A program made the translations under genes and the position numbers. A DNA stretch of 64,000 nt from Ranitomeya imitator (taxonomy: Eukaryota). This document shows, in pieces, positions 23,242 to 36,021 of this stretch. The notes under the pieces were generated by a model. That model saw only the letters and a program-made list of their open reading frames with translations. It was not told the DNA's origin and did not search any database. Position 1 is the first letter of the stretch. Each line of letters starts with the position of its first letter. The DNA lies in the NCBI RefSeq assembly GCF_032444005.1, contig NC_091286.1, positions 167,400,001-167,464,000 of the forward strand, given 5' to 3'.

Positions 23242-25830
23242 TGTTCCAATAAATACATTTCTTTTTCTACCGTAATTAAAAAAAAATAAAAGTACACATT
23301 TAGTATCGCCACATCCGAAAGGACCCGACCTATAACACTGTCCCACTAGTTAACCCCATAAGTGATCACCGTAAAAAAAGAGGCAAAAAACAACGCTTTA
23401 TTATCATACTGCCCAGCAAAAAGTGGAATAACACGCGATCAAAAAGACTGTTATAAATAAACATGGTACCGCTGAAAATGTCATCTTGTCCCGCAAAAAA
23501 CTAGCCGCCATACAGCATTATCAGAAAAAAAAGTTATAGTCCCCAGAAGCAAAAATAATTATTTTTTATATAAAATAGATTTTATCGTATAAAAGCGCCA
23601 AAACATAAAAAAATATAAATGAGGTATCGCTGTAATCCTACTGACCCGAAGAATAAAACTGCTTTATCAATTTTATCAAACGTGGAATGGTATGAATGCC
23701 CCCCCCCAAAAGAAATTCACAAATTGCTGGTTTTTGTTCATTCTGCCTCGCAAAAATAGGAATAAAAAGTAATCAAAAAAAGTAACATGCCCGAAAATGG
23801 TACCAATAAAAAACATCAACTCGTCCCGCAAAAAACAAGACCTCACATATGACTCTGTGGACCAAGGTATGGAAAAATTATAGCTCTCAAAATGTGGAGA
23901 TGCAAAAACTATTTTTTGCAATGAAAAGCGTCTTTTAGTGTGTGACAGCTGCCAATCATAAAAATCCCCAAAGAAACTCGCAATCAAAGTAAATCAAACC
24001 CCCCTTCATCACCCCCTTAGTTGGAGAAATATAATAAAATTGTAAAAATTTATTTATTTCCATTTATCCATTAGGGTTAGGGTTGGGGCTAAAGTTAGGG
24101 TTAGGGCTACAGTTATGGTTAGGGTTTGGATTACATTTACGGTTGGGATTAGGGTTAGGGGTGTGTTTGGGTTAGGGTTTCAGTTGGAATTGGGGGGTTT
24201 CCACTGTTTAGGCACATCAGGGGCTCTCCAAACGCGACATGGCGTCCGATCTCAATTCCAGCCAATTTTGCATTGAAAAGTCAAACGGCGCTCCTTCCCT
24301 TGCGAGCTCTCCCGTGCGCCCAAACAGGGGTTTACCCCAACTTATGGGGTATCAACGTACTCAGACCAAATTGGACAACAACGTTTGGGGTCCAATTTCT
24401 CTTGTTACGCATGGGAAAATAAAAACTTGGGGGGCTAAAAAATCATTTTTGTGGGAAAAAAATTATTTTCACGGCTCTCCGTTATAAACTGTAGTGAAAC
24501 ACTTGGGGGTTCAAAGTTCTCACAACACATCTAGATAAGTTCCTCAGGGGGTCTAGTTTCCAATATGGGGTCACTTGTGGGGGGTTTCTACTGTTTAGGT
24601 ACATCAGGGGCTCTGCAAACGCAATGTGACGCCTGCAGACCATTCCATCTAAATCTGCATTCCAAACAGCGCTCCTTCCCTTCCGAGCTCTGCCATGCGC
24701 CCAAATGGTGGTTCCCCCCAAGTTCCCTAGGGGGTCTACTTTCCAAAATGGTCTCTCTTGTGGGGGTTTCAATGTTTAGGCACATCGGGGGCTCTCCAAA
24801 CGCGACATGGCGTCCTATCTTAATTCCAGTCAATTTTGCATTGAAAAGTCAAATGACGCTCCTTCCCTTCCAATCCATGCGCCCAAACAGTGGTTTATCC
24901 CCACATATGGGGTATCAGTGTGCTCAGGACAAATTGCACAACATCGTTTGGGGTCCAATTTCTCCTGTTACCCTTAGTAAAATAAAACAAATTGGAGCTA
25001 AAGTAAATTTTTAGTGAAAAAAGTTAATGTTCATTTTTTTTCTTTTTTAAACATTCCAAAAATTCCTGTGAAACACCTGAAGGGTTAATAAACTTCTTGA
25101 ATGTGGTTTTGAGCACTTTGAGTGGTGCAGTTTTTAGAATGGTGTCACACTTGGGTATTTTCTATCATATAGACCCCTCAAAGTGACTTCAAATGTGATG
25201 TGGTCCCTAAAAGAAAAATGGTGTTGTAAAAATGAGAAATTGCTGGTCAACTTTTAACCCTTATAACTGCCTAACAAAAAAAAAAATTTGGTTCCAAAAT
25301 TGTGCTGAAGTAAGTAGACATGTGGGAAATGTTACTTATTAAGCTTTTTGTGTGACATAACTCTGTGATTTAAGGGCATAAAAATTCAAAGCTGGAAAAT
25401 TGCAAAATTTTCAAAATTTCTGCCAAGTTTCTGTTTTTTCCCCACAAATAAACGCAGGTAATATCAAAGAAATTTTACCACTAACATGAAGCACAATATG
25501 TCATGAGAAAAGTGTCAGAATCACTGGGATCTGTTGAAGCGTTCCCGAGTTATAACCTCATAAAGGGACATTGGTCAGAATTTTAAAAATTGGCCCGGTT
25601 ATTAACGTGCAAACCACCCTTGGGGGTAAAGGGGTTAATATTCCTGATAAGCTCACTAATTCTGACTTTCAGTGGGCTTTTTGTACAACCCACATACAGC
25701 TTGTCGCATGGGCATTTAATGAGATAGATAACACCCTCTGTAGAGCATGAAATAAAGTTTTTAATTTTATATTCTTTGCCATCCTTAGTAATTCCCAGTT
25801 TCTTGCGGGTTTTGGTCTGGTGGCACATTC
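22280..25830 (-). mobile_element. Penelope-like 3' fragment (GIY-YIG), split by copy C
   Basis: SCSTEGVIYLIKCPCDKLYVGCT...IRNI|KQKFLNHPLLKHF rejoins across TTAA. A hammerhead-like motif lies at 22283-22316. Confidence 0.82.
22599..25634 (-). mobile_element. piggyBac-like non-autonomous element, complete copy C (3,036 bp)
   Basis: TTAA at 22595-22598 and 25635-25638. Both ends start CCCCTTT. Reverse complement of copy B; contains (CA)n at ~23184-23231. Confidence 0.9.
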
Positions 25831-26205: not shown

Positions 26206-27043
26206 GGAGCCTACACCTTTTCCAGGACATGACAGCGGGTCTGATCAGCTGTCATGTGCCCAGAACAGCCGCGGGTATCATTGCAATTCACTAGCGGCTG
26301 TGAACATGTTAAATGCCGCTGTCAAACTCTTGACAGCGGCATTTAACATGCACGTGCAGGGAGCGCGTCATGTCCCCATAAAACCCATACCCAAATAAAT
26401 ACACAGGACACAGATATCACAGTGGCATAAAATTGGCCGTGCGGTTTTATTCAGGGTTACATAAAATACCTTAAATATTTCCAATAAATAAACTTCCATA
26501 AAATAAATTCAAATTCTCCAAATTTCCAAATGTCCAAATCCACCCATACATGGGTGATTTTTCCCCACAATTAAAACCACACGACAGGATGAATGACGAT
26601 ATAGAGGGAGGGAGGGTGGGCTCTTCTTTAATCTTGCGTCAGCAACTGAGGCGCTCAGAACCGCCAGTCAGGTTAAATATTTGAAAAAAGACCGCCAAAA
26701 ACGCTCTCCACCAATGAGAATTCAGCAAACTTGCCGCTCAAAAACTGATTGAAACCAGATTGTCACGAATCTACCACAGATTCTGACATTACAATAACAT
26801 CATAAAAATGCATAAAATAGTTCCCAATAAAATGGACAGAGCAGGGTCTATGAGGACATGAGACCCCCGCTATACTGCTTTATGTCTTGAGCGGGGGGGC
26901 TTACATGTCCCCATAAAACCCATACCCAAATAAATACACAGGACACAGATATCACAGTGGCATATAATTGGCCGTGCGGTTTTATTCAGGGTTACATAAA
27001 ATACCTTAAATATTTCCAATAAATAAACTTCCATAAAATAAAT

Positions 27044-27717
27044 TCAAATTCTCCAAATTTCCAAATGTCCAAATCCACCCATACATGGGTGATTTTTCCC
27101 CACAAGGCCGAGACTAAACAAGTCGAGGCCCCCCCCCCCCCCCCCCCCCCCACCGCACAGCCATTTTTCAGTTATGCTGCCCATATTTAAATTAAAAATA
27201 TCCAGACCAATATTGGATAAGTGAATCAAATCCTGTCTAAACATCCCGGGTAGAAACCCCTCCAAATCTTCGTGCCTAAAAGAAAAGCCACCCAACAAAG
27301 GAAAAAATTTCATCATGGCACGGTTCACCCTCTTACGAATTTTATCCAGAAATAAAAATTGCTGTTGTTGCCAAAAGAGTCTGGGAATGATCTCAGAAAA
27401 AACAAGGCTTGAAAAAGGAAAATTTTGCCTCAAAAATATAAGATCAGACCTCATGGTCGCTAACAGATCAAGCGTATTGATTTTACCCAGATCATTACCA
27501 GCAAGATGAATAATAATTAAATCCGGGTAAGGAAATTTCAACATGCAGTTGTTTAACTCAGGAACTAAGGAAGCCCACTTCAATCCTCGAATGCTATGCC
27601 AGAAGACCTGAGTAATAGAAGGGTTAAATGATAAATTCTCCGAATAGGACCGCTGACTAGCCCTCTTCTGGGCCCAGAAAACAAATGAGTGGCCAACAAT
27701 CCAAACAATAGTTGGAC
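27044..27717 (-). CDS. SGNH/GDSL hydrolase-like ORF of the Ngaro element (no ATG; begins at a putative splice acceptor)
   Basis: Frame is open from 27718: block I WIVGHSF, block II RGLKW, block III HLAGNDL, block V QDLIH. Confidence 0.85.
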
Positions 27718-27735
27718 CTAAAAGAGAATAAACGA

Positions 27736-28599
27736 TTAGTCAGCATATAAATTATGACGAACATACAGTTTGAAACGGTTAGAGTTCCATCTACCCATTT
27801 TTTTGATTTTAGCATCGGACAAACCGGCCCTAGCGGCCTCCGTAGCTGCACCAATCCTAAAAGAATGGGAAGATATTTTGAGGTGACTTTTACCCAAAAA
27901 GGAAAGGCATTTCTTGAGGATAAAATTAAACTGAAATATCGTCACTGGTGACTTATCCCTGTGTATGAACAATGGGCCCTGCACCGCAGGCCTATTAACA
28001 ATCCATTTTGAAAAATGAAGAACCTGGCAAATAGTAGGATCATAAAATGAATTCAAGCGAATTTCACTACCCCTTCCTAACTGATCGGTTTTAGATTTCC
28101 TTATAAACACTAAGAGGGATGAATCGCATAGCTTAACGTCCTCTAGTCTGAGCCCAGATGGTTCTGCTTTTTTAAAGGATACTATCTCGCTCACTCTAAG
28201 AGCTCCAAAAAAACAGATGGAAAAAATGGCATTAAATAATAAAGCTTCCTCCGAATTCGAACAAACACTAGTCAGCGCTGAGCAAATGCTTATCAATAAC
28301 GAAAATGAGATAGGGCGTCTGGAATCTGGTAAAAAATTTTCATGTTTCAGGCCTTTCAAAAACTGTTTCACGAGAAAAAGGTCAGTTAGAGCAGTTCTCC
28401 CATGAACCTTAAAAAAAAAGGAAACTCCTGCGAAGCATTTCGCCACTGCAGAGTAAGATAAGTTCTTCTTGAGTAAGGACTCCGCAAATTGTAAGGCCAC
28501 GAAAGGATCAGACACCAATACTTCAAAACCATGCAAAACACAAAAATCAGTCCACTTCTTCCATGCGGCTGAATAATCAGCCCATGATCGTTTGGACAA
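27736..28599 (-). CDS. Tyrosine recombinase
   Basis: FFGALRVSE (R), RKSKTDQ (K), SHSFRIGAAT (HxxR) and GRWNSNRFKLY (W, Y). No upstream ATG. Confidence 0.93.
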   Translation of the reverse strand: MSKRSWADYSAAWKKWTDFCVLHGFEVLVSDPFVALQFAESLLKKNLSYSAVAKCFAGVSFFFKVHGRTALTDLFLVKQFLKGLKHENFLPDSRRPISFSLLISICSALTSVCSNSEEALLFNAIFSICFFGALRVSEIVSFKKAEPSGLRLEDVKLCDSSLLVFIRKSKTDQLGRGSEIRLNSFYDPTICQVLHFSKWIVNRPAVQGPLFIHRDKSPVTIFQFNFILKKCLSFLGKSHLKISSHSFRIGAATEAARAGLSDAKIKKMGRWNSNRFKLYVRHNLYAD

Positions 28600-28622
28600 T
28601 GAATTTTATATAAAATACGGTA

Positions 28623-30534
28623 CTAAGCTGAGATCACATCCCAGACTGAGGGAGGACAAAACGTTGCTTCTTTGTCCGCTAATGGAACATGTTGGAAAAA
28701 ATTAATCCACTGACTATTCAAAATTAGCTCCGTACAATTACTAATATTGCTAACACCCACTTTTGCCTTCAACCAAACGTTATTTTTTAAACATAATAAA
28801 ACTAATTGCCTCAGAATTTTTGCGGCCCAAAGGTTCTTTGAAGAAAGGGTATTGATAGCAAAAACCACCGCCTGGTTTGAAGAATTTAACAAAATTCTTG
28901 AATTCTGCAATTCGTTGCCCCAAAGAAAAATGAGTGAAAAAATCGCGAAGAGCTCTATGAGCAGGGAGTTATTAATGACCTTAACAAAATTACAATCGTC
29001 AGGCCAACTCAAGTGAACCCAGTGTGAAGAAAATAAAAGACCGACGCCTAAGGAAACCTCCGCCGAAAAGGCCAGCGGAATGGAATCTGCATTGATAAAA
29101 GGAGACTGAATAACAGATCTGCCATTAAAGTCAGCCAAGAATAAGAGCCAAATTCTTGCATCCTCCTTAAGATCCGATCGGACCCTGATGTGGGACTTAG
29201 GTGAAGAAAACCCCTTAGTAGCTTCGTAAAGACTTCTAGAAAATACACGGCCCATTGGGATAACCCGAAGGGCGAAATTAAGAAGGCCCAACAAAGCTTG
29301 CAAATCCTTGAGGATAATGTTTTCCTTAGACAAAAATTCCGAAAGAGATGCTCGCAGTTTAGCAACCTTTGCCTCAGGCAAAATAGCTACCATTTTTTCT
29401 GAGTCAATTAAAATACCTAAAAATTCAATCTGACTACATGGGCCGACTGTCTTATCGTGGGCGATGGGAACTCCAAAGTGAGCACACAAACGTAAGAAGC
29501 TGTCCAAGGTATCCTTACATGCGCGAGAATGAGGAGGACCCACAAAAAGGAAATCATCCAGGTAGTGCAAAATACCAGCCTCTACACAGCTGGATTGCAA
29601 TACCCAATGTAGAAAAACAGAAAAAGATTCAAAATAAAAGCAAGACAAAGAAAAGCCCATTGGAAGGCACCTATCAAAGAAAAAACAGTTATCAAACTGA
29701 AAACCCAAAGAATTGAAACCCATAGGGTGAACTGGTAAGAGCCTAAAAGCCGATTTAATATCGGATTTAGCCATCAAGGAAAAAGGGCCAAATTTTCTTA
29801 GAAGATCTAACGCGCCGTCAAAAGAAGAATAGGATACTGAACACAGATCCTTATCCACTTTGTCGTTTAGGGACTGACCCGGTGGATACGATAGATGGTG
29901 GATTAACCGAAACGAACCAAAATCTTTTTTAGGAACCACCCCTTGGGGCGAAATGCGACAATTCAAGAAAGGAGGGGACGAAAAAGGGCCAGCCACCCTA
30001 CCAAATTCTAACTCGTTAGAAATTTTTTCCCTAACAACTTCGGGAAAAGCGAAAACAGATGATACATTTTTTTACTAAAGTGCAACCTTTCCCTTCAAAA
30101 CGAGGAACAAAAAAACCGGAATAGAACCCATCATAAAGGAGACGACTAGTCTCCTTGTTTGGGAATTTGCTTAGCCAATAGACCATATTTTCCAGAATCA
30201 CTGGCGTCCGAGCCTTTTGGGTTAGAATCCCTAATTGAAGATTGCTGAGCTGCTTGCTTCTTAAAACACTTGGACATGGGGTGGGGGTTACCGCAGAACG
30301 AGCACTCATGCCTAAACCTACAGTTGTTGTTCCACTTGCAAAAAGACTCGTTGAAGGCGAAGCAGACGCCTTTTTTAGGAAAGGAATTAACCGATTGCCT
30401 GCTAACCACATTTCTCGATGGCAGCATGAGGTTAATCCACAAGCCAATGTCCTTAGTACCCCACTTGACCTCCGGGTGAACTGAAAGTTTGTGTCTAAAT
30501 GCCTCATCATAGTGAAGCCAAGCAGTACCTCCAA
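28623..30534 (-). CDS. Reverse transcriptase + RNase H-like domain; one 1-nt frameshift in the homopolymer at ~30067-30073
   Basis: VVPKK...FRLIHHLS, KSDIKSAFRLL, LPMG and HYLDDF. Removing one A joins LVKNVSSVFAFPEVV...AGPF. Confidence 0.9.
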
Positions 30535-31066
30535 AATTCCTATAGGCTTCTAAAATGATGTCGACGTGCTGAAACAGGCTGCTGCAAAGATTAGGGGATT
30601 TTTCCCCCAAAACTGCAGCATATATAGCAAAAGCCTGTATCCAATTGTTAAAAGATCTAATGTTACGTTTACTGTCATCAGAGTCAGCCCTATCATCTTT
30701 TTTATCTGACTTGGGGGGCTGATCTCTGCGAGGCAGGAGAGAAAATAGATCAATATAATTATTGTTACAAATAAGCTCCTTCACCGAAGAGCTTAAGTGA
30801 AAACCAAGGGGCGACAGTTCGCACATAAGTGCCTCCTTAAAAGGATTCAAAGGGGTAAGACCAAGGGCAGGCGCTTCTGAAGGTAAAGAAATGCTAGCAG
30901 ATACTAAAGGAGAAGGGAGACCCACATTACCCATGGTCTCACATATAACCGATTTAATAAGTTCCTTCAATTGATTGTGAGGAAAAGGGAAGTTAGTTAA
31001 CTCACCCTTTGAATGCAGAACGTCTCGGCGTCGCTCTCCAGAGCCACTTGCGCTCAAGCCCACCAT
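30146..31066 (-). CDS. Gag-like ORF with C-terminal zinc-finger motifs
   Basis: SFNNWIQAFAIYAAV, WLHYDEAFR and CFAFN...CRFRHECSFCGNPHPMSKC. Confidence 0.88.
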   Translation of the reverse strand: MVGLSASGSGERRRDVLHSKGELTNFPFPHNQLKELIKSVICETMGNVGLPSPLVSASISLPSEAPALGLTPLNPFKEALMCELSPLGFHLSSSVKELICNNNYIDLFSLLPRRDQPPKSDKKDDRADSDDSKRNIRSFNNWIQAFAIYAAVLGEKSPNLCSSLFQHVDIILEAYRNFGGTAWLHYDEAFRHKLSVHPEVKWGTKDIGLWINLMLPSRNVVSRQSVNSFPKKGVCFAFNESFCKWNNNCRFRHECSFCGNPHPMSKCFKKQAAQQSSIRDSNPKGSDASDSGKYGLLAKQIPKQGD

Positions 31067-31614
31067 AATAGGTGAGCGCGGCTCTCTGAGAGAATTTGCT
31101 TGGGGATCATCTTTTCTTCGGAGGACTGTGTAGCAACAGCTGGAGCCGGCCTTCCTTGCTGTGCCGGAGCAAAGATGGCCGCTCTGGAGCGAGAAGAGGA
31201 GGGGACCGCGGCGCTTTTACGGCCCTGCCCCTCACCTGACCTTCCGGATCCTTCATATGACGGCGAAAGTTCACGCTGAGGGCACCGGCTGAGATCCCGC
31301 ACCGGGCTGCGGGATTTGTCTGAGGTGCAGCGACGCGGCTTCTTACCGGCGTCCCGAGCGCTACGCCTGGGAGTCGCAGAACCCGCAGCTGCAGACGGCA
31401 CAGACCTAGACTTCCTGGGACAAGTTCCGGAGCTTGAATCAGTCACAGCAGCAGGTACAGGGCTTGGCAACGGAGGAAGGGGCTCTGGAACCGGAGGGGG
31501 AGGAATGGCTTCGGAGGCTGATGGCAAGGGACTCATAGCCAGACAGCTTTTTAACCAATCCAGGCCGTTTTCACCCCCGGTCCTGGCTAGAAGCTCCTGC
31601 ATAAGCTTCTCCAT
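31054..31614 (-). CDS. Pro/Ser/Arg-rich ORF, probably the frameshifted N-terminus of gag/ORF1
   Basis: ATG lies 14 bp inside repeat A1. Overlaps the gag frame, which is open about 130 nt upstream of its own ATG. Confidence 0.6.
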   Translation of the reverse strand: MEKLMQELLARTGGENGLDWLKSCLAMSPLPSASEAIPPPPVPEPLPPLPSPVPAAVTDSSSGTCPRKSRSVPSAAAGSATPRRSARDAGKKPRRCTSDKSRSPVRDLSRCPQRELSPSYEGSGRSGEGQGRKSAAVPSSSRSRAAIFAPAQQGRPAPAVATQSSEEKMIPKQILSESRAHLLWWA

Positions 31615-32902
31615 GACAGCGCGGTATCTCTTCTTTAATCTTGCGTCAGCAACTGAGGCGCTCAGAACCGCCAGTCAGGTTAAATATTTGAAAAAAGACC
31701 GCCAAAAACGCTCTCCACCAATGAGAATTCAGCAAACTTGCCGCTCAAAAACTGGTTGAAACCAGATTGTCACGAATCTACCACAGATTCTGACATTACA
31801 ATAACATCATAAAAATGCATAAAATAGTTCCCAATAAAATGGACAGAGCAGGGTCTATGAGGACATGAGATCCCCGCTATACTGCTTTATGTCTTGAGCG
31901 GGGGGGCTTACATTACCTCCTCCCATCGGCACCCATGTCACATGACCGCGGGTCGCCGATGGGTTGGCATGACATCCCGGGGTCAGGAGAAAACCCTGTG
32001 GTTGTCATTGCTGGATCGCTTTGAGCGCCGCATGGTGGTTGGCGCTCATAGCGAGTGAGCATATCTGCTACATATAGAAGGGCTGCAGCCCTGCTCTGTA
32101 GCAGAGCCAATCAGACAAATAAAGCTTCTAGCCTCCCATGGAGACTATTGAAGCATTCAGAAGTTTTAAAAAAAAGTTTTTAAAAATCTTAAAAAATATA
32201 TAAAAGTCTTAAGTCACCCCCCCATTTGCCCCATTCAAAATAAACCAATGAAAAAAAAAATCAAATATACACATATTTGGTATCGCCGCGTTCAGAATCT
32301 ATCAACATAAAAAAATAATCCAATCGGTAAACGTTGTAGCAAGAAAAAGATTGAAATACCCGTAATTACGTTTTTTTTGGTTTTCAATAGATCATATCTG
32401 CACCAAAGTGGTATCCTTAAAAACGTCAGCTCGGCACACAAAACATAAGCCCTCACCTGGCCCCAGATCCCGAAAAATGGAGACGCTGCGGGTCTTGGAA
32501 AATGGCAATTTTTTTTTTTTATATACTAACTTTGGATTTTTTTTCACCACTTAGATAAAAAAGAACCTTGACATGTTTGGTGTCTATGAACTCGTAATGA
32601 CCTGGAGAATCATAATCACAGGCCAGTTTTAGCATTTAGTGAACCTAGCAAAAATAGCCAAACAAAAAACAAGTGTGGGGACTGCACTTTTTTTTCAATT
32701 TCACCACACTTGGAATATTTTGCCCATTTTCTTTTACACGACATAGTAAAACCAATGTCATTCTAAAGTACAACTCGTCCTGCAAAAAATAAGCCTTCAC
32801 ATGGCCATTTTGACCAAAAAATAATCGTTATGGCTCTGTGAAGAAGGGGAGCAAAAAATGAAAATGGAAAACCAAAAATACCCCTGGTCGTTAAGGGGTT
32901 AA

Positions 32903-33540: not shown

Positions 33541-36021
33541 CCGTGATTTTTGCTTTTTAAGACGCACCTGATTATAAGACGCACCTAGATTTTAGACAGG
33601 AAAATAAGGAAAAAATATTTTGATCCAAATAGTGTGCAAAAACCTTTCATAAAATACAAAAATATTATCTGTGGATGACGCTCTGTTATGGGGGATCTGT
33701 GAATTACAGTACTGTGCCTGCAGTACCGTATATTGTGATTATCGCCCCCTCATCCTCAGGTTACACCCACTTACTGTATACATGGATGTATTCTGAAAGA
33801 TAAGGGAGGTGGTAGTCACATTTGCAATAAACACTTTGGACACTACATTACAGTGTATATACTAAATATGGCTAGAACCCCCATCATCCTACAGAATATA
33901 CCCATTGATACAGTATATTCTGAAGGATGATGGGGGTTGTTTTCTCACCTTTGCTAAAAGGATCTCACTAGGGTTGAGCGAAACGGGTCGGCCAGATTCA
34001 GAAGTCGCCGACTTTTGGCAAAGTCGGGTTTCATGAAACCCGACCCCTGTGTGGGGTCGGCCATGAGGTCGGCGATCTTCTGAATCTGGTATCGGAATTC
34101 CGATACCGAGTTCCGATATGTTTGCGATATCGGAAATTGGTATCGGAATCCATATTTAAGTGTAAAATAAAGAATCAAAATAAAAAATATTGATATACTC
34201 ACCCTCGGACGCGCCCTGGTACTAACCGGCAGCCTTCCTTCCTAAGAATGAGTGCCTGAAAGGCCTTCTGTGACGTCGCGGCTTGTGATTGGTCGCGTGA
34301 CCAATCACAAGCCGCGACGTCATCGAAGGTCCTTCAGTCGCTCATTCTTAGGAAGGAAGGTTGCCGGTGAGAACCAGGGTGCGTCCGAGGGTAAGTATAT
34401 CAATATTTTTTATTTTGATTCTTTATTTTACACTTAAATATGGATCTCAGGGCCTGAAGGAGAGTTTCCTCTCCTTCAGACCCTGGGAACCATTAGAAAC
34501 CCAATGCACTGCATTGGGTTTCGGCCGACCCCCGACCCCGACTTTTCTATAGGATCGGCCGATTTCACTCGACCCGACTTTTGAAAAAGTCGGGTTTCGT
34601 GAAACCCGACCCGATCCTATAAAAAGAAAAGTCGCTCAACCCTAGATCTCACACTTGTGAGTACCGTAGTTGCAACATTAAATAGTGTGCAGAGACAGAT
34701 ATGTGATTGGTGGAGGCAGCTCAGCAACAGTTCCCTCCACCAATCACTATCCATCCCTGCAGAGGAAGAGGAGAATCACTCTTCTCAACCTCCTCAGGTT
34801 TAGGCCTCTTTGACACATCTGTGTCTCCAGTACATGTGGTGACAATTTTCACACGTACCGGAGACACTGACAAAGGTAGACCCATTCAAATGAATGGGTC
34901 TGTGCACATGTCAGTGTGTTCCAAAGCACCGTGTGCCCCACACGTAGACATGTCCATTTTTTACTGTCAACACAGGCGGCAAAACGTTCCACACACGTGC
35001 ACACTGAGAACACTCATGGATGTCATCAGTGTGACACGCATCGGCACCGGTGAATAAGCGCTACAGTAAGCTCTTCTATGGTGCCGGGTGCTCTCATACT
35101 CCTGTGCTCTGCCGGCGATCGGCGCAAGCAGAGGAGAATGAGTTCTATTCAAGTCAGAACAATAACCGCAGGCGGGGGCTTTTTGGACTATTACTCCCAT
35201 CAACATACACCTGCTGCCGCTAATGGCAGAAGCAGATGATGGGGGTATTCCTCACCCGCCGCCTGTGTTATAACTAAATGAATGAAAACCCTCAGCTGTC
35301 AGCTTCCGCAAGGTTGTTATCAAGAATAGAGGGGTTCCCACGCCTTATTTTTAATTAAATAATTTTAAAAAACTTGTGGGGTCCCCCCCATTTTTGACAA
35401 CCAGCATTGCTAAAGCTCACATCTGGGAGCTGGTATTTTCAGGCTGGTAAGGGGCCATGGATATTGCCCCCTCCCCAGCTTAAAAATATCAGCCCACAGC
35501 TGCCCAGAAAAGGCGCATCTATTGGATGCGCCAATTCTGGCGCTTTGCCCGGCTTTTCCTACTTGCTCTGTAGCGGTGGCAAGTGGGGTTCATAATTGTG
35601 GGGTTGATGTCACCTGACAATACATAGATGCTTGATGCATGGGCTTGATGCCCACTGCTTAGTAATGGAGAGGCGTCGATGAGACACCTATCCATTACTA
35701 ATCCTATAGCTATATGGTAAATAAAGACACAGCCAGAATAAAATCCTTTAATTGAAAAAATGACACATATTACTTTAATAATCTCAATAAAAGCATACTT
35801 ACGCCCTCGCCTAATTCCACCAAAGCCCTGATCTCCTTTAATAAAAGTAAAATAAATAAACAACAATATACCATACCTGTCTGTTCTGTCCCTCGCCGCT
35901 GTACCACCACTGCAACTCCCGCAGCATAGGTAATAATAATGTTTGGTTTATAAGACTCATGCCCATTTCCCCCCTAATTTTGGGGATCATAAAAGTGCGT
36001 CTTATATAGCGAAAAATACGG
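33541..36021. mobile_element. Tc2/pogo-like non-autonomous element with TA TSD
   Basis: Imperfect TIRs CCGTGATTTTTGCTTTTTAAGACGCAC / CCGTATTTTTCGCTATATAAGACGCAC. TA at 33539-33540 and 36022-36023. Confidence 0.8.
33969..34644. mobile_element. hAT MITE, 676 bp
   Basis: TIR TAGGGTTGAGCGA and perfect 8-bp TSD GATCTCAC (33961-33968, 34645-34652). Confidence 0.92.

Follow-up and report, generated by a model that had tools for sequence, protein, structure and literature searches.

A gag-internal splice donor appears to join the Gag N-terminus to the SGNH hydrolase and the recombinase of an amphibian Ngaro retrotransposon

Results

The window analysed here, 64,000 nt of the Ranitomeya imitator assembly GCF_032444005.1 (contig NC_091286.1, positions 167,400,001 to 167,464,000), contains on its minus strand a Ngaro element of 5,545 nt (26369-31913, in window positions), whose frames follow each other in the order gag-like open reading frame 1 (ORF1), reverse transcriptase (RT)/RNase H, tyrosine recombinase (YR) and SGNH hydrolase. 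ORF1 is called gag-like by its place and its Cys/His cluster alone and is without a Pfam match. The split direct repeats are arranged with A1 at the 5' end and B1, A2 and B2 at the 3' end, the A repeats being 99% alike over 286 nt and the B repeats 100% alike over 202 nt; no methyltransferase family was found at E 0.01 in the six frames of the element scanned. By its repeats, its gene order, an SGNH frame placed after the YR and the lack of a methyltransferase, the window element is a Ngaro-like YR retrotransposon. The same layout of repeats and frames is given for amphibian Ngaro elements, such as Xenopus DIRS-53_XT, in the main text of PMC9210276, where the hydrolase ORF after the YR is said to have "no proven function". 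The question examined here is how this hydrolase is expressed, for which the initial annotation of the sequence had proposed an env-like spliced mRNA.

The proposed donor, AAGG/GTGAGT (exon end 31006, phase 1; a slash marks the exon boundary), ranks second among 309 GT sites on the element's strand according to a rough weight matrix used for the ranking only. At the acceptor, the branch-like motifs CTGAC (27743-27739) and CTAAT (27739-27735) overlap the YR stop codon TAA (27738-27736) and are followed by a tract with pyrimidines at 13 of 15 positions and by AG at 27719-27718; this is the sole site with three branch-like matches among the top 25 of 306 AG sites. From the ATG at 31066 to 31006 there are 61 nt, so the donor is in phase 1, and the second exon gives 2 nt before continuing with PTIVWIVGHSF. 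Every coordinate of the donor, branch motifs, tract, AG and 3,288-nt intron was recomputed and is correct, as is phase 1 on both sides, and these signals are not chance. Two details had to be amended. The SGNH frame, described as open from 27718, is actually open from 27739, eight codons before the Pro, and its reported lack of an ATG is true of the part before the nucleophile Ser10, but in-frame ATGs do exist, the first of them at residue 58.

Conservation was examined in the window copy and 99 others, namely 39 of 40 scored DNA matches and 60 hand-picked from 150 scored protein matches. All were chosen by SGNH likeness, down to 62% SGNH identity, out of the thousands of candidates (5,999, of which 150 were scored) that the approximately 6 Gb genome of R. 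imitator contains. YAG/G stands at the acceptor position in 86 of the 100 copies. Eleven copies of a 13-copy cluster have lost this AG and possess instead a CAG that keeps the phase, 9 nt further downstream, which leaves three copies with neither: L118, with an indel at the exon start, and the rearranged L124 and L133. The branch region could be compared in 25 of 28 subfamilies, three without an adjacent YR end having been dropped. A YTRAY motif was present 15-30 nt upstream of the acceptor in all 25, with 8-12 pyrimidines in 12, and the 40 nt before the acceptor contained 10 AG dinucleotides in total where 60.7 were expected from the YR body. The YR stop, TAA or TGA in 25 of 25 subfamilies, supplies the core of the branch motif.

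The donor G/GTGAG is present in 72 of the 77 copies with a locatable ORF1 region (23 lack that region or are truncated, and the match in L145 is probably due to chance). Fifteen subfamily representatives, taken for their intact ORF1 and irrespective of the donor, have an invariant Gly-Glu pair at this point within an otherwise freely varying linker. All 15 encode the Gly by GGT, and no other of the 27 conserved four-fold columns is confined to a single codon; the Glu is GAG in all 15, and only one other of the 62 two-fold columns is likewise confined to one codon. These fixed codons indicate that the constraint acts on nucleotides. U2-type intron signals (GT donor, branch motif, tract and YAG) are therefore kept at the nucleotide level, and the alignment of family copies, which had been suggested as a check, finds the donor, branch motif, AG and phase all conserved.

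Siblings with an intact ORF1 begin it at the ATG of 31614 and read on past the donor into gag; 203 codons precede the donor, and a conserved ATGG about 200 codons upstream of the donor starts ORF1 in 15 of 15 representatives. Only two of the 15 have Met at the 31066 column, and in ten the 40 codons leading up to the donor encode no Met at all. The 244-aa product with a 20-aa leader assumed earlier is thus abandoned in favour of what had been added as an aside, namely that the leader may start at 31614. The SGNH part comprises 195 aa in most copies and 223 aa in the window copy, by way of a run of 23 G at 27129-27151, and the 244-aa size is peculiar to this copy. A leader of 203 codons and an SGNH part of 195 aa give an expected product of approximately 399 aa.

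Gene models with exactly such joints are already present among public proteins. A search for longer SGNH proteins returned 15 matches, of which two are RT chimeras and 13, from eight frog species and 321-545 aa long, consist of the ORF1 N-terminus followed by SGNH; the N-terminal module was recognized in 12 of these by BLASTP to its first 30 residues and in the thirteenth by alignment. Model P0003 equals copy L142 letter for letter in two exons, with the joint AAGG/GTGAGA to TTTAG/G, while P0017 and P0001 equal copies L106 and L163, likewise letter for letter and in two exons, through the shifted CAG; the joint then encodes Val, as expected from the phase. Exon 1 contributes 198-249 residues in the mapped models. 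Many models are numbered isoforms of one locus, which presumably reflects read support. At E<=0.001 a profile search matched 2,414 proteins, and a small hidden Markov model of the N-terminal module recognized it in 24 of 142 new proteins among the matches listed. Named models with the module include those of Hyperolius, Mantella, Eleutherodactylus and Bufo, and models of Spea, Engystomops, Xenopus and Bombina also have long low-complexity leaders; outside the R. imitator genome exon structures were assessed by protein comparison only. Four Rhinoderma models (P0009, P0039, P0044 and P0047; 534-545 aa) have a second, later gag donor, extending about 120 aa further into gag before the same SGNH exon. 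Other N-terminal leaders occur on SGNH or YR models of the lizards Elgaria (P0334, isoform X2) and Anolis (P0073, a YR model, isoform X2), which begin alike, and of a lungfish (P0345), whose leader has a Cys/His cluster; judging from these sequences, reptiles and lungfish may have the splice programme as well.

The C-terminal domain of the fusion is an SGNH hydrolase by its residues, profile and predicted fold, and a putative esterase. The residues Ser (block I), Gly (II), Asn (III), Asp and His (V) are present in 23, 22, 23, 22 and 22 of 23 subfamily representatives, respectively, and the median dN/dS (nonsynonymous to synonymous substitution ratio) is 0.10, calculated from the 69 of 231 pairs that were unsaturated. 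Lipase_GDSL_2 matches eight of ten fusion models; the window SGNH protein alone has no Pfam or PDB sequence match. A structure model of P0001, built with 10 sequences (mean pLDDT, the per-residue confidence score, 57.6), has helices at residues 2-12 and 17-26, disorder at 30-194 and then a folded domain, and the linker contains 12-17% Arg+Lys. Foldseek returned 71 matches for the folded domain at E<=0.001 with SGNH enzymes on top, among them PAF-AH, TesA and, at rank 24, the ZfL2-1 esterase (PDB 4c1b). A two-copy prediction of the N-terminal module (residues 1-32), made with no alignment, scored 0.05. Proteins of 1,700-2,060 aa, among them P0259 (from moray eel), P0260 and P0274, are rich in Pro and Gly and end in a Ngaro-like SGNH domain; these are possibly products of a host gene with a captured domain.

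The same donor appears, from sequence and gene models, to serve the recombinase also. Twelve of 45 long YR proteins have a partner among the SGNH models with which they share 80 residues or more at no less than 70% identity: four from Rhinoderma, two from X. tropicalis and one each from Dendropsophus, Hyperolius, Eleutherodactylus, Bufo, X. laevis and Bombina (partner unnamed). Members of a pair part 32-39 aa before the YR core in ten of the 12 and closer to it in two. At one Rhinoderma locus, isoforms share 222-226 residues and then continue into YR, SGNH or the rest of gag. Model P0050 equals exactly copy L160, which belongs to a more distant R. imitator family and also has the SGNH acceptor, and joins the ORF1 N-terminus to YR from a G/GTGAGA donor to a phase-1 CAG. 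Within the window clade, 81 copies could be scored for a second acceptor (19 were dropped as truncated or absent). Of the 81, 73 have a phase-1 YAG/G 83 nt upstream of the YR core, followed in 71 by an open YR frame; the window copy itself has lost the AG (28689). The site used by P0050 and in Rhinoderma, at -104, was also considered for this clade. YAG is found there in 58 of 81 copies, and the site at -83 is preferred since the YR frame is open after -104 in only 21.

Transcript evidence was sought in contigs of four of ten runs, one per study and of guessed or unknown kind, placed at 85% likeness. The joint 27717-31006 was not found among the 13 joints listed, a search of little power in which the donor bin was without cover in X1, X8 and X4. 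Precise intron-less copies are also absent: all 31 long matches to 30940-31240 (from 33 candidates, all scored) keep the donor and run into the intron, and one copy that ends 5 nt past the donor holds gag downstream. Spliced RNA would keep both ends of the element, so the lack of such copies suggests that the intron may contain a signal for packaging or copying. As for the RT, it is in the +1 frame to gag (30146-30550 in the window), with no conserved start or acceptor found. No conserved phase-1 acceptor precedes the RT start in the ten of 16 sequences in which the start motif was located, and BLASTP found the N-terminal module in none of 120 long RT proteins among the matches listed. Copy L136 has ORF1 in frame into RT (989 aa), probably through a copy-specific indel.

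Discussion

From these results we conclude, with a probability of about 0.86, that a donor 203 codons into ORF1 is likely spliced to the same-phase SGNH acceptor, giving a Gag N-terminus-esterase fusion of about 399 residues, and that the same donor is likely joined to a second acceptor to give a fusion of the Gag N-terminus with the recombinase. What is observed are the signals, their phase, conservation at the level of nucleotides and public models with exactly these joints; we infer that the joints are used in vivo in the window family. Conservation, the phase-keeping shift of the acceptor and the matching NCBI models give good support to splicing as the way in which the SGNH protein is made. 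The comparison with env is a loose fit only. A large intron does remove gag and pol, but exon 1 is coding, adding far more than the little or nothing typical of env mRNAs.

Several points weigh against this interpretation. The copies were selected by SGNH and their subfamilies are related, so that the counts are not independent events, and conservation of the branch motif is less surprising because the YR stop codon supplies its core. Gene models are computed, and homology can copy models between species; the NCBI pipeline combines RNA-seq, protein alignments and ab initio signal, according to PMC12605758. The four mapped models come from R. imitator itself and are therefore not independent of that genome, and neither the window's own subfamily nor its candidate YR acceptor is represented by any model found. 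That acceptor encodes Gln-Val of RNase H (CAG in six of seven Gln codons). Its conservation is therefore partly protein-driven, and lying within RNase H codons while being used by no model, it makes the YR step weaker in the window clade. Finally, unspliced contigs cross both the acceptor (X1, 27652-28476) and the donor (X7, 30863-31064), which is also expected from full-length RNA or DNA carry-over.

The SGNH protein could in principle be made with no splicing, through frameshift or readthrough from YR, reinitiation or an internal promoter, given that its frame begins only 16-25 nt past the YR stop and that an upstream in-frame ATG occurs somewhere in 35 of 100 copies. The spacer between YR stop and SGNH, however, falls into all three phases (15, 35 and 46 of 96 scorable copies) and 65 of 100 copies lack an upstream in-frame ATG, which together rule out readthrough, a fixed frameshift or an own start; an in-frame ATG or a readthrough route in the family had been named beforehand as evidence that would speak against splicing. 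The first internal Met comes after the nucleophile, and the fixed donor codons and phase-keeping AG shift would be left unexplained, which makes this explanation highly improbable. Even less credible is a real splice yielding the short form of about 244 aa with a 20-aa leader: the ATG at 31066 is in phase with the join in the window copy and a nearby Met occurs in five of 15 representatives, but the lack of Met before the donor in most representatives and the conserved upstream ATGG speak for the long leader, and the mapped models start at the upstream ATG. We give equally little credit to the signals being a relic or serving another purpose, such as RNA control or avoiding disruption of host genes, with no SGNH protein made now. 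The low-power contigs without the joint and the broken window copy would agree with that, whereas the phase kept when the AG moves, the low dN/dS with intact catalytic residues and the youth of the family would not.

The best of the alternatives, although still unlikely, accepts splicing for SGNH and derives YR from unspliced RNA through programmed frameshifting in the RT/YR overlap, the ORF1-YR models then being annotation artefacts. Frameshifting for the YR of Ngaro was proposed by Poulter and Butler, as quoted in 2026 in an excerpt of PMC13003380, and the window's subfamily has a T TTT TTC heptamer that is read in the RT frame and stands immediately ahead of the open YR frame; the overlap of the candidate acceptor with RNase H codons is also in its favour. 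The heptamer was, however, found in one of seven scored representatives, as against 71 of 81 copies that combine YAG/G with an open YR frame. The exact two-exon match of P0050 and the YR/SGNH isoform pairs, which occur in eight frog species or genera and extend to Xenopus and Bombina, also speak against frameshifting.

If the splice reading is correct, unspliced RNA would serve as genome and as messenger for full Gag, joining of the donor to the SGNH acceptor would give the Gag N-terminus (about 203 aa) with the esterase, and joining to the YR acceptor would give the Gag N-terminus with the recombinase. The shared two-helix module and Arg-rich linker might then direct both enzymes to the Gag/RNA particle, a task that falls to Gag-Pol fusion in other systems, and the putative esterase might act on lipids or membranes in the manner of the ZfL2-1 ORF1p esterase. 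We give about even odds to a broader proposal, an undescribed hub-and-spoke splicing of vertebrate Ngaro elements predating the split of Xenopus, Bombina and poison frogs, in which one gag donor would tag recombinase and esterase for particle loading with no need of a frameshifted Gag-Pol, while cis signals in the intron would bar the copying of spliced RNAs.

Known systems resemble this arrangement in parts. Retroviral and errantiviral env mRNAs and the spliced pol of foamy viruses reach a 3' ORF through one large gag/pol intron. The product of env mRNAs is a membrane-anchored glycoprotein with a signal peptide, and exon 1 adds little or no coding to it, in contrast to about 203 aa, a putative esterase and a recombinase here. 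Since the shared exon is coding, the SGNH product would be a Gag N-terminal fusion and closer to P50 of murine leukaemia virus (MLV), in which, according to excerpts of PMC10496198, a gag-internal donor (SD' RNA) and a downstream acceptor make an in-frame fusion of the Gag N-terminus with another protein. P50 is there an accessory protein that includes a piece of integrase, made from an RNA (SD') that is itself packaged and copied, whereas the Ngaro join would be the only route to whole enzymes and would use two acceptors; none of the 31 matches is intron-less. Conserved alternative splicing also sets the protein output of plant Ty1/Copia elements by a subgenomic shGAG RNA (PMC5580714), with the difference that splicing there makes Gag alone, while here Gag would come from unspliced RNA and the enzymes from splicing. 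According to excerpts of PMC3905857, ZfL2-1 ORF1p of the CR1/L2 group combines a coiled coil that dimerizes and an Arg-rich motif with an esterase that is active and binds liposomes. In common with the predicted Ngaro fusion it has an SGNH esterase domain with a Ser-Asp-His triad and a Gly/Asn oxyanion hole, in front of which lie a helical N-terminus and an Arg-rich stretch. ZfL2-1 differs in being a non-LTR (long terminal repeat) element with a single unspliced ORF and a long dimeric coiled coil, as opposed to a helical module of about 26 aa and a layout that would come by splicing.

For Ngaro itself, the main text of PMC9210276 treats the ORFs as overlapping frames, with no occurrence of "splic" or "intron", whereas SGNH and YR appear here as spliced fusions with the ORF1 N-terminus. 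No description of the splice was found in a literature search lying outside the two founding Ngaro papers and the supplements of PMC9210276, and excerpts of PMC6681497, PMC7192593, PMC9341512, PMC8547959 and PMC3266345 make no mention of it; we put the chance that an earlier mention based on expressed sequence tags exists at about one in five. Expression of the overlapping start-less ORFs of DIRS-order elements has so far been largely assumed. If splicing is the route, the true proteins would be an esterase fusion of about 400 aa and a recombinase fusion of about 500-550 aa, each beginning with the Gag N-terminus. This would change the proteins to be expressed and assayed, and junction reads would report directly on element activity in the large genomes of amphibians. 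A YR retrotransposon would also have reached, through splicing, the helix, Arg-rich stretch and esterase layout of CR1/L2 ORF1p. Many "uncharacterized", "mucin-like" and "collagen-like" frog gene models would likewise be identified as transposon products.

Structure and state of the window copy

The features of the element are collected in Table 1. The family is young, with seven copies 96-100% alike, and copies L160 and L162 have the same split-repeat layout. The window copy carries indels near 31110 (ORF1) and 30060 (RT) and within the G run around 27140-27150, and a stop codon stands immediately 5' of its YR core. With its frames broken in ORF1 and RT and a stop at the YR start, the copy is unable to make the full product.

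Table 1. Coordinates of the Ngaro element and of its predicted splice sites and exons in the window
Feature	Position	Strand	Remarks
Split direct repeat A1, 5' end of element	31628..31913	-	286 nt, 99% to A2
Coding part of shared exon 1, ORF1 N-terminus	31006..31614	-	203 codons in intact siblings; frame break near 31110 here
Two-helix N-terminal module, about 26 aa, conserved	31537..31614	-	followed by disordered Ser/Pro/Ala/Arg-rich linker
ATG assumed by the initial annotation, not conserved	31064..31066	-	Met at column in 2/15 subfamily representatives
Splice donor AGG/GTGAGT, exon end 31006, phase 1	31000..31008	-	Gly-Glu codons GGT GAG
Predicted 3,288-nt intron of SGNH mRNA (rest of gag, RT/RNase H, YR)	27718..31005	-	equivalents in mapped gene models
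ORF1 C-terminal part, Cys/His cluster near end	30146..31005	-	would be read from unspliced RNA only; no Pfam match
RT/RNase H frame, +1 to gag, break near 30060 here	28623..30207	-	RVT_1, E 4e-8
Candidate YR acceptor, phase 1, within RNase H coding	28689..28713	-	YAG/G in 73/81 scorable copies; AG lost here
Tyrosine recombinase core, no ATG	27736..28605	-	Phage_integrase, E 2e-7; stop directly 5' here; own stop codon forms branch motif
SGNH acceptor	27718..27743	-	branch motifs 27743-27735, pyrimidine tract 27734-27720, AG 27719-27718
SGNH hydrolase exon	27044..27717	-	Ser10 27688-27686, Gly44, Asn74, Asp162, His165 27223-27221
Repeat B1	26904..27105	-	AATAAA at 26986
Repeat A2	26621..26906	-	99% to A1
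Repeat B2, 3' end of element	26369..26570	-	AATAAA at 26451

The element is nested in another repeat (26368/26369 and 31913/31914), and contigs of all four runs join 26368 to 31911 with a 3-nt overlap, coming either from an empty site or from sister repeats. The triplet ATG is present at both element ends and at the B1/A2 junction, which fits integration of a circle by the recombinase. Near the element lie a hairpin with 147-nt arms, 93% complementary (34148-34445), and a degenerate TTAGGG-like array (24071-24183).

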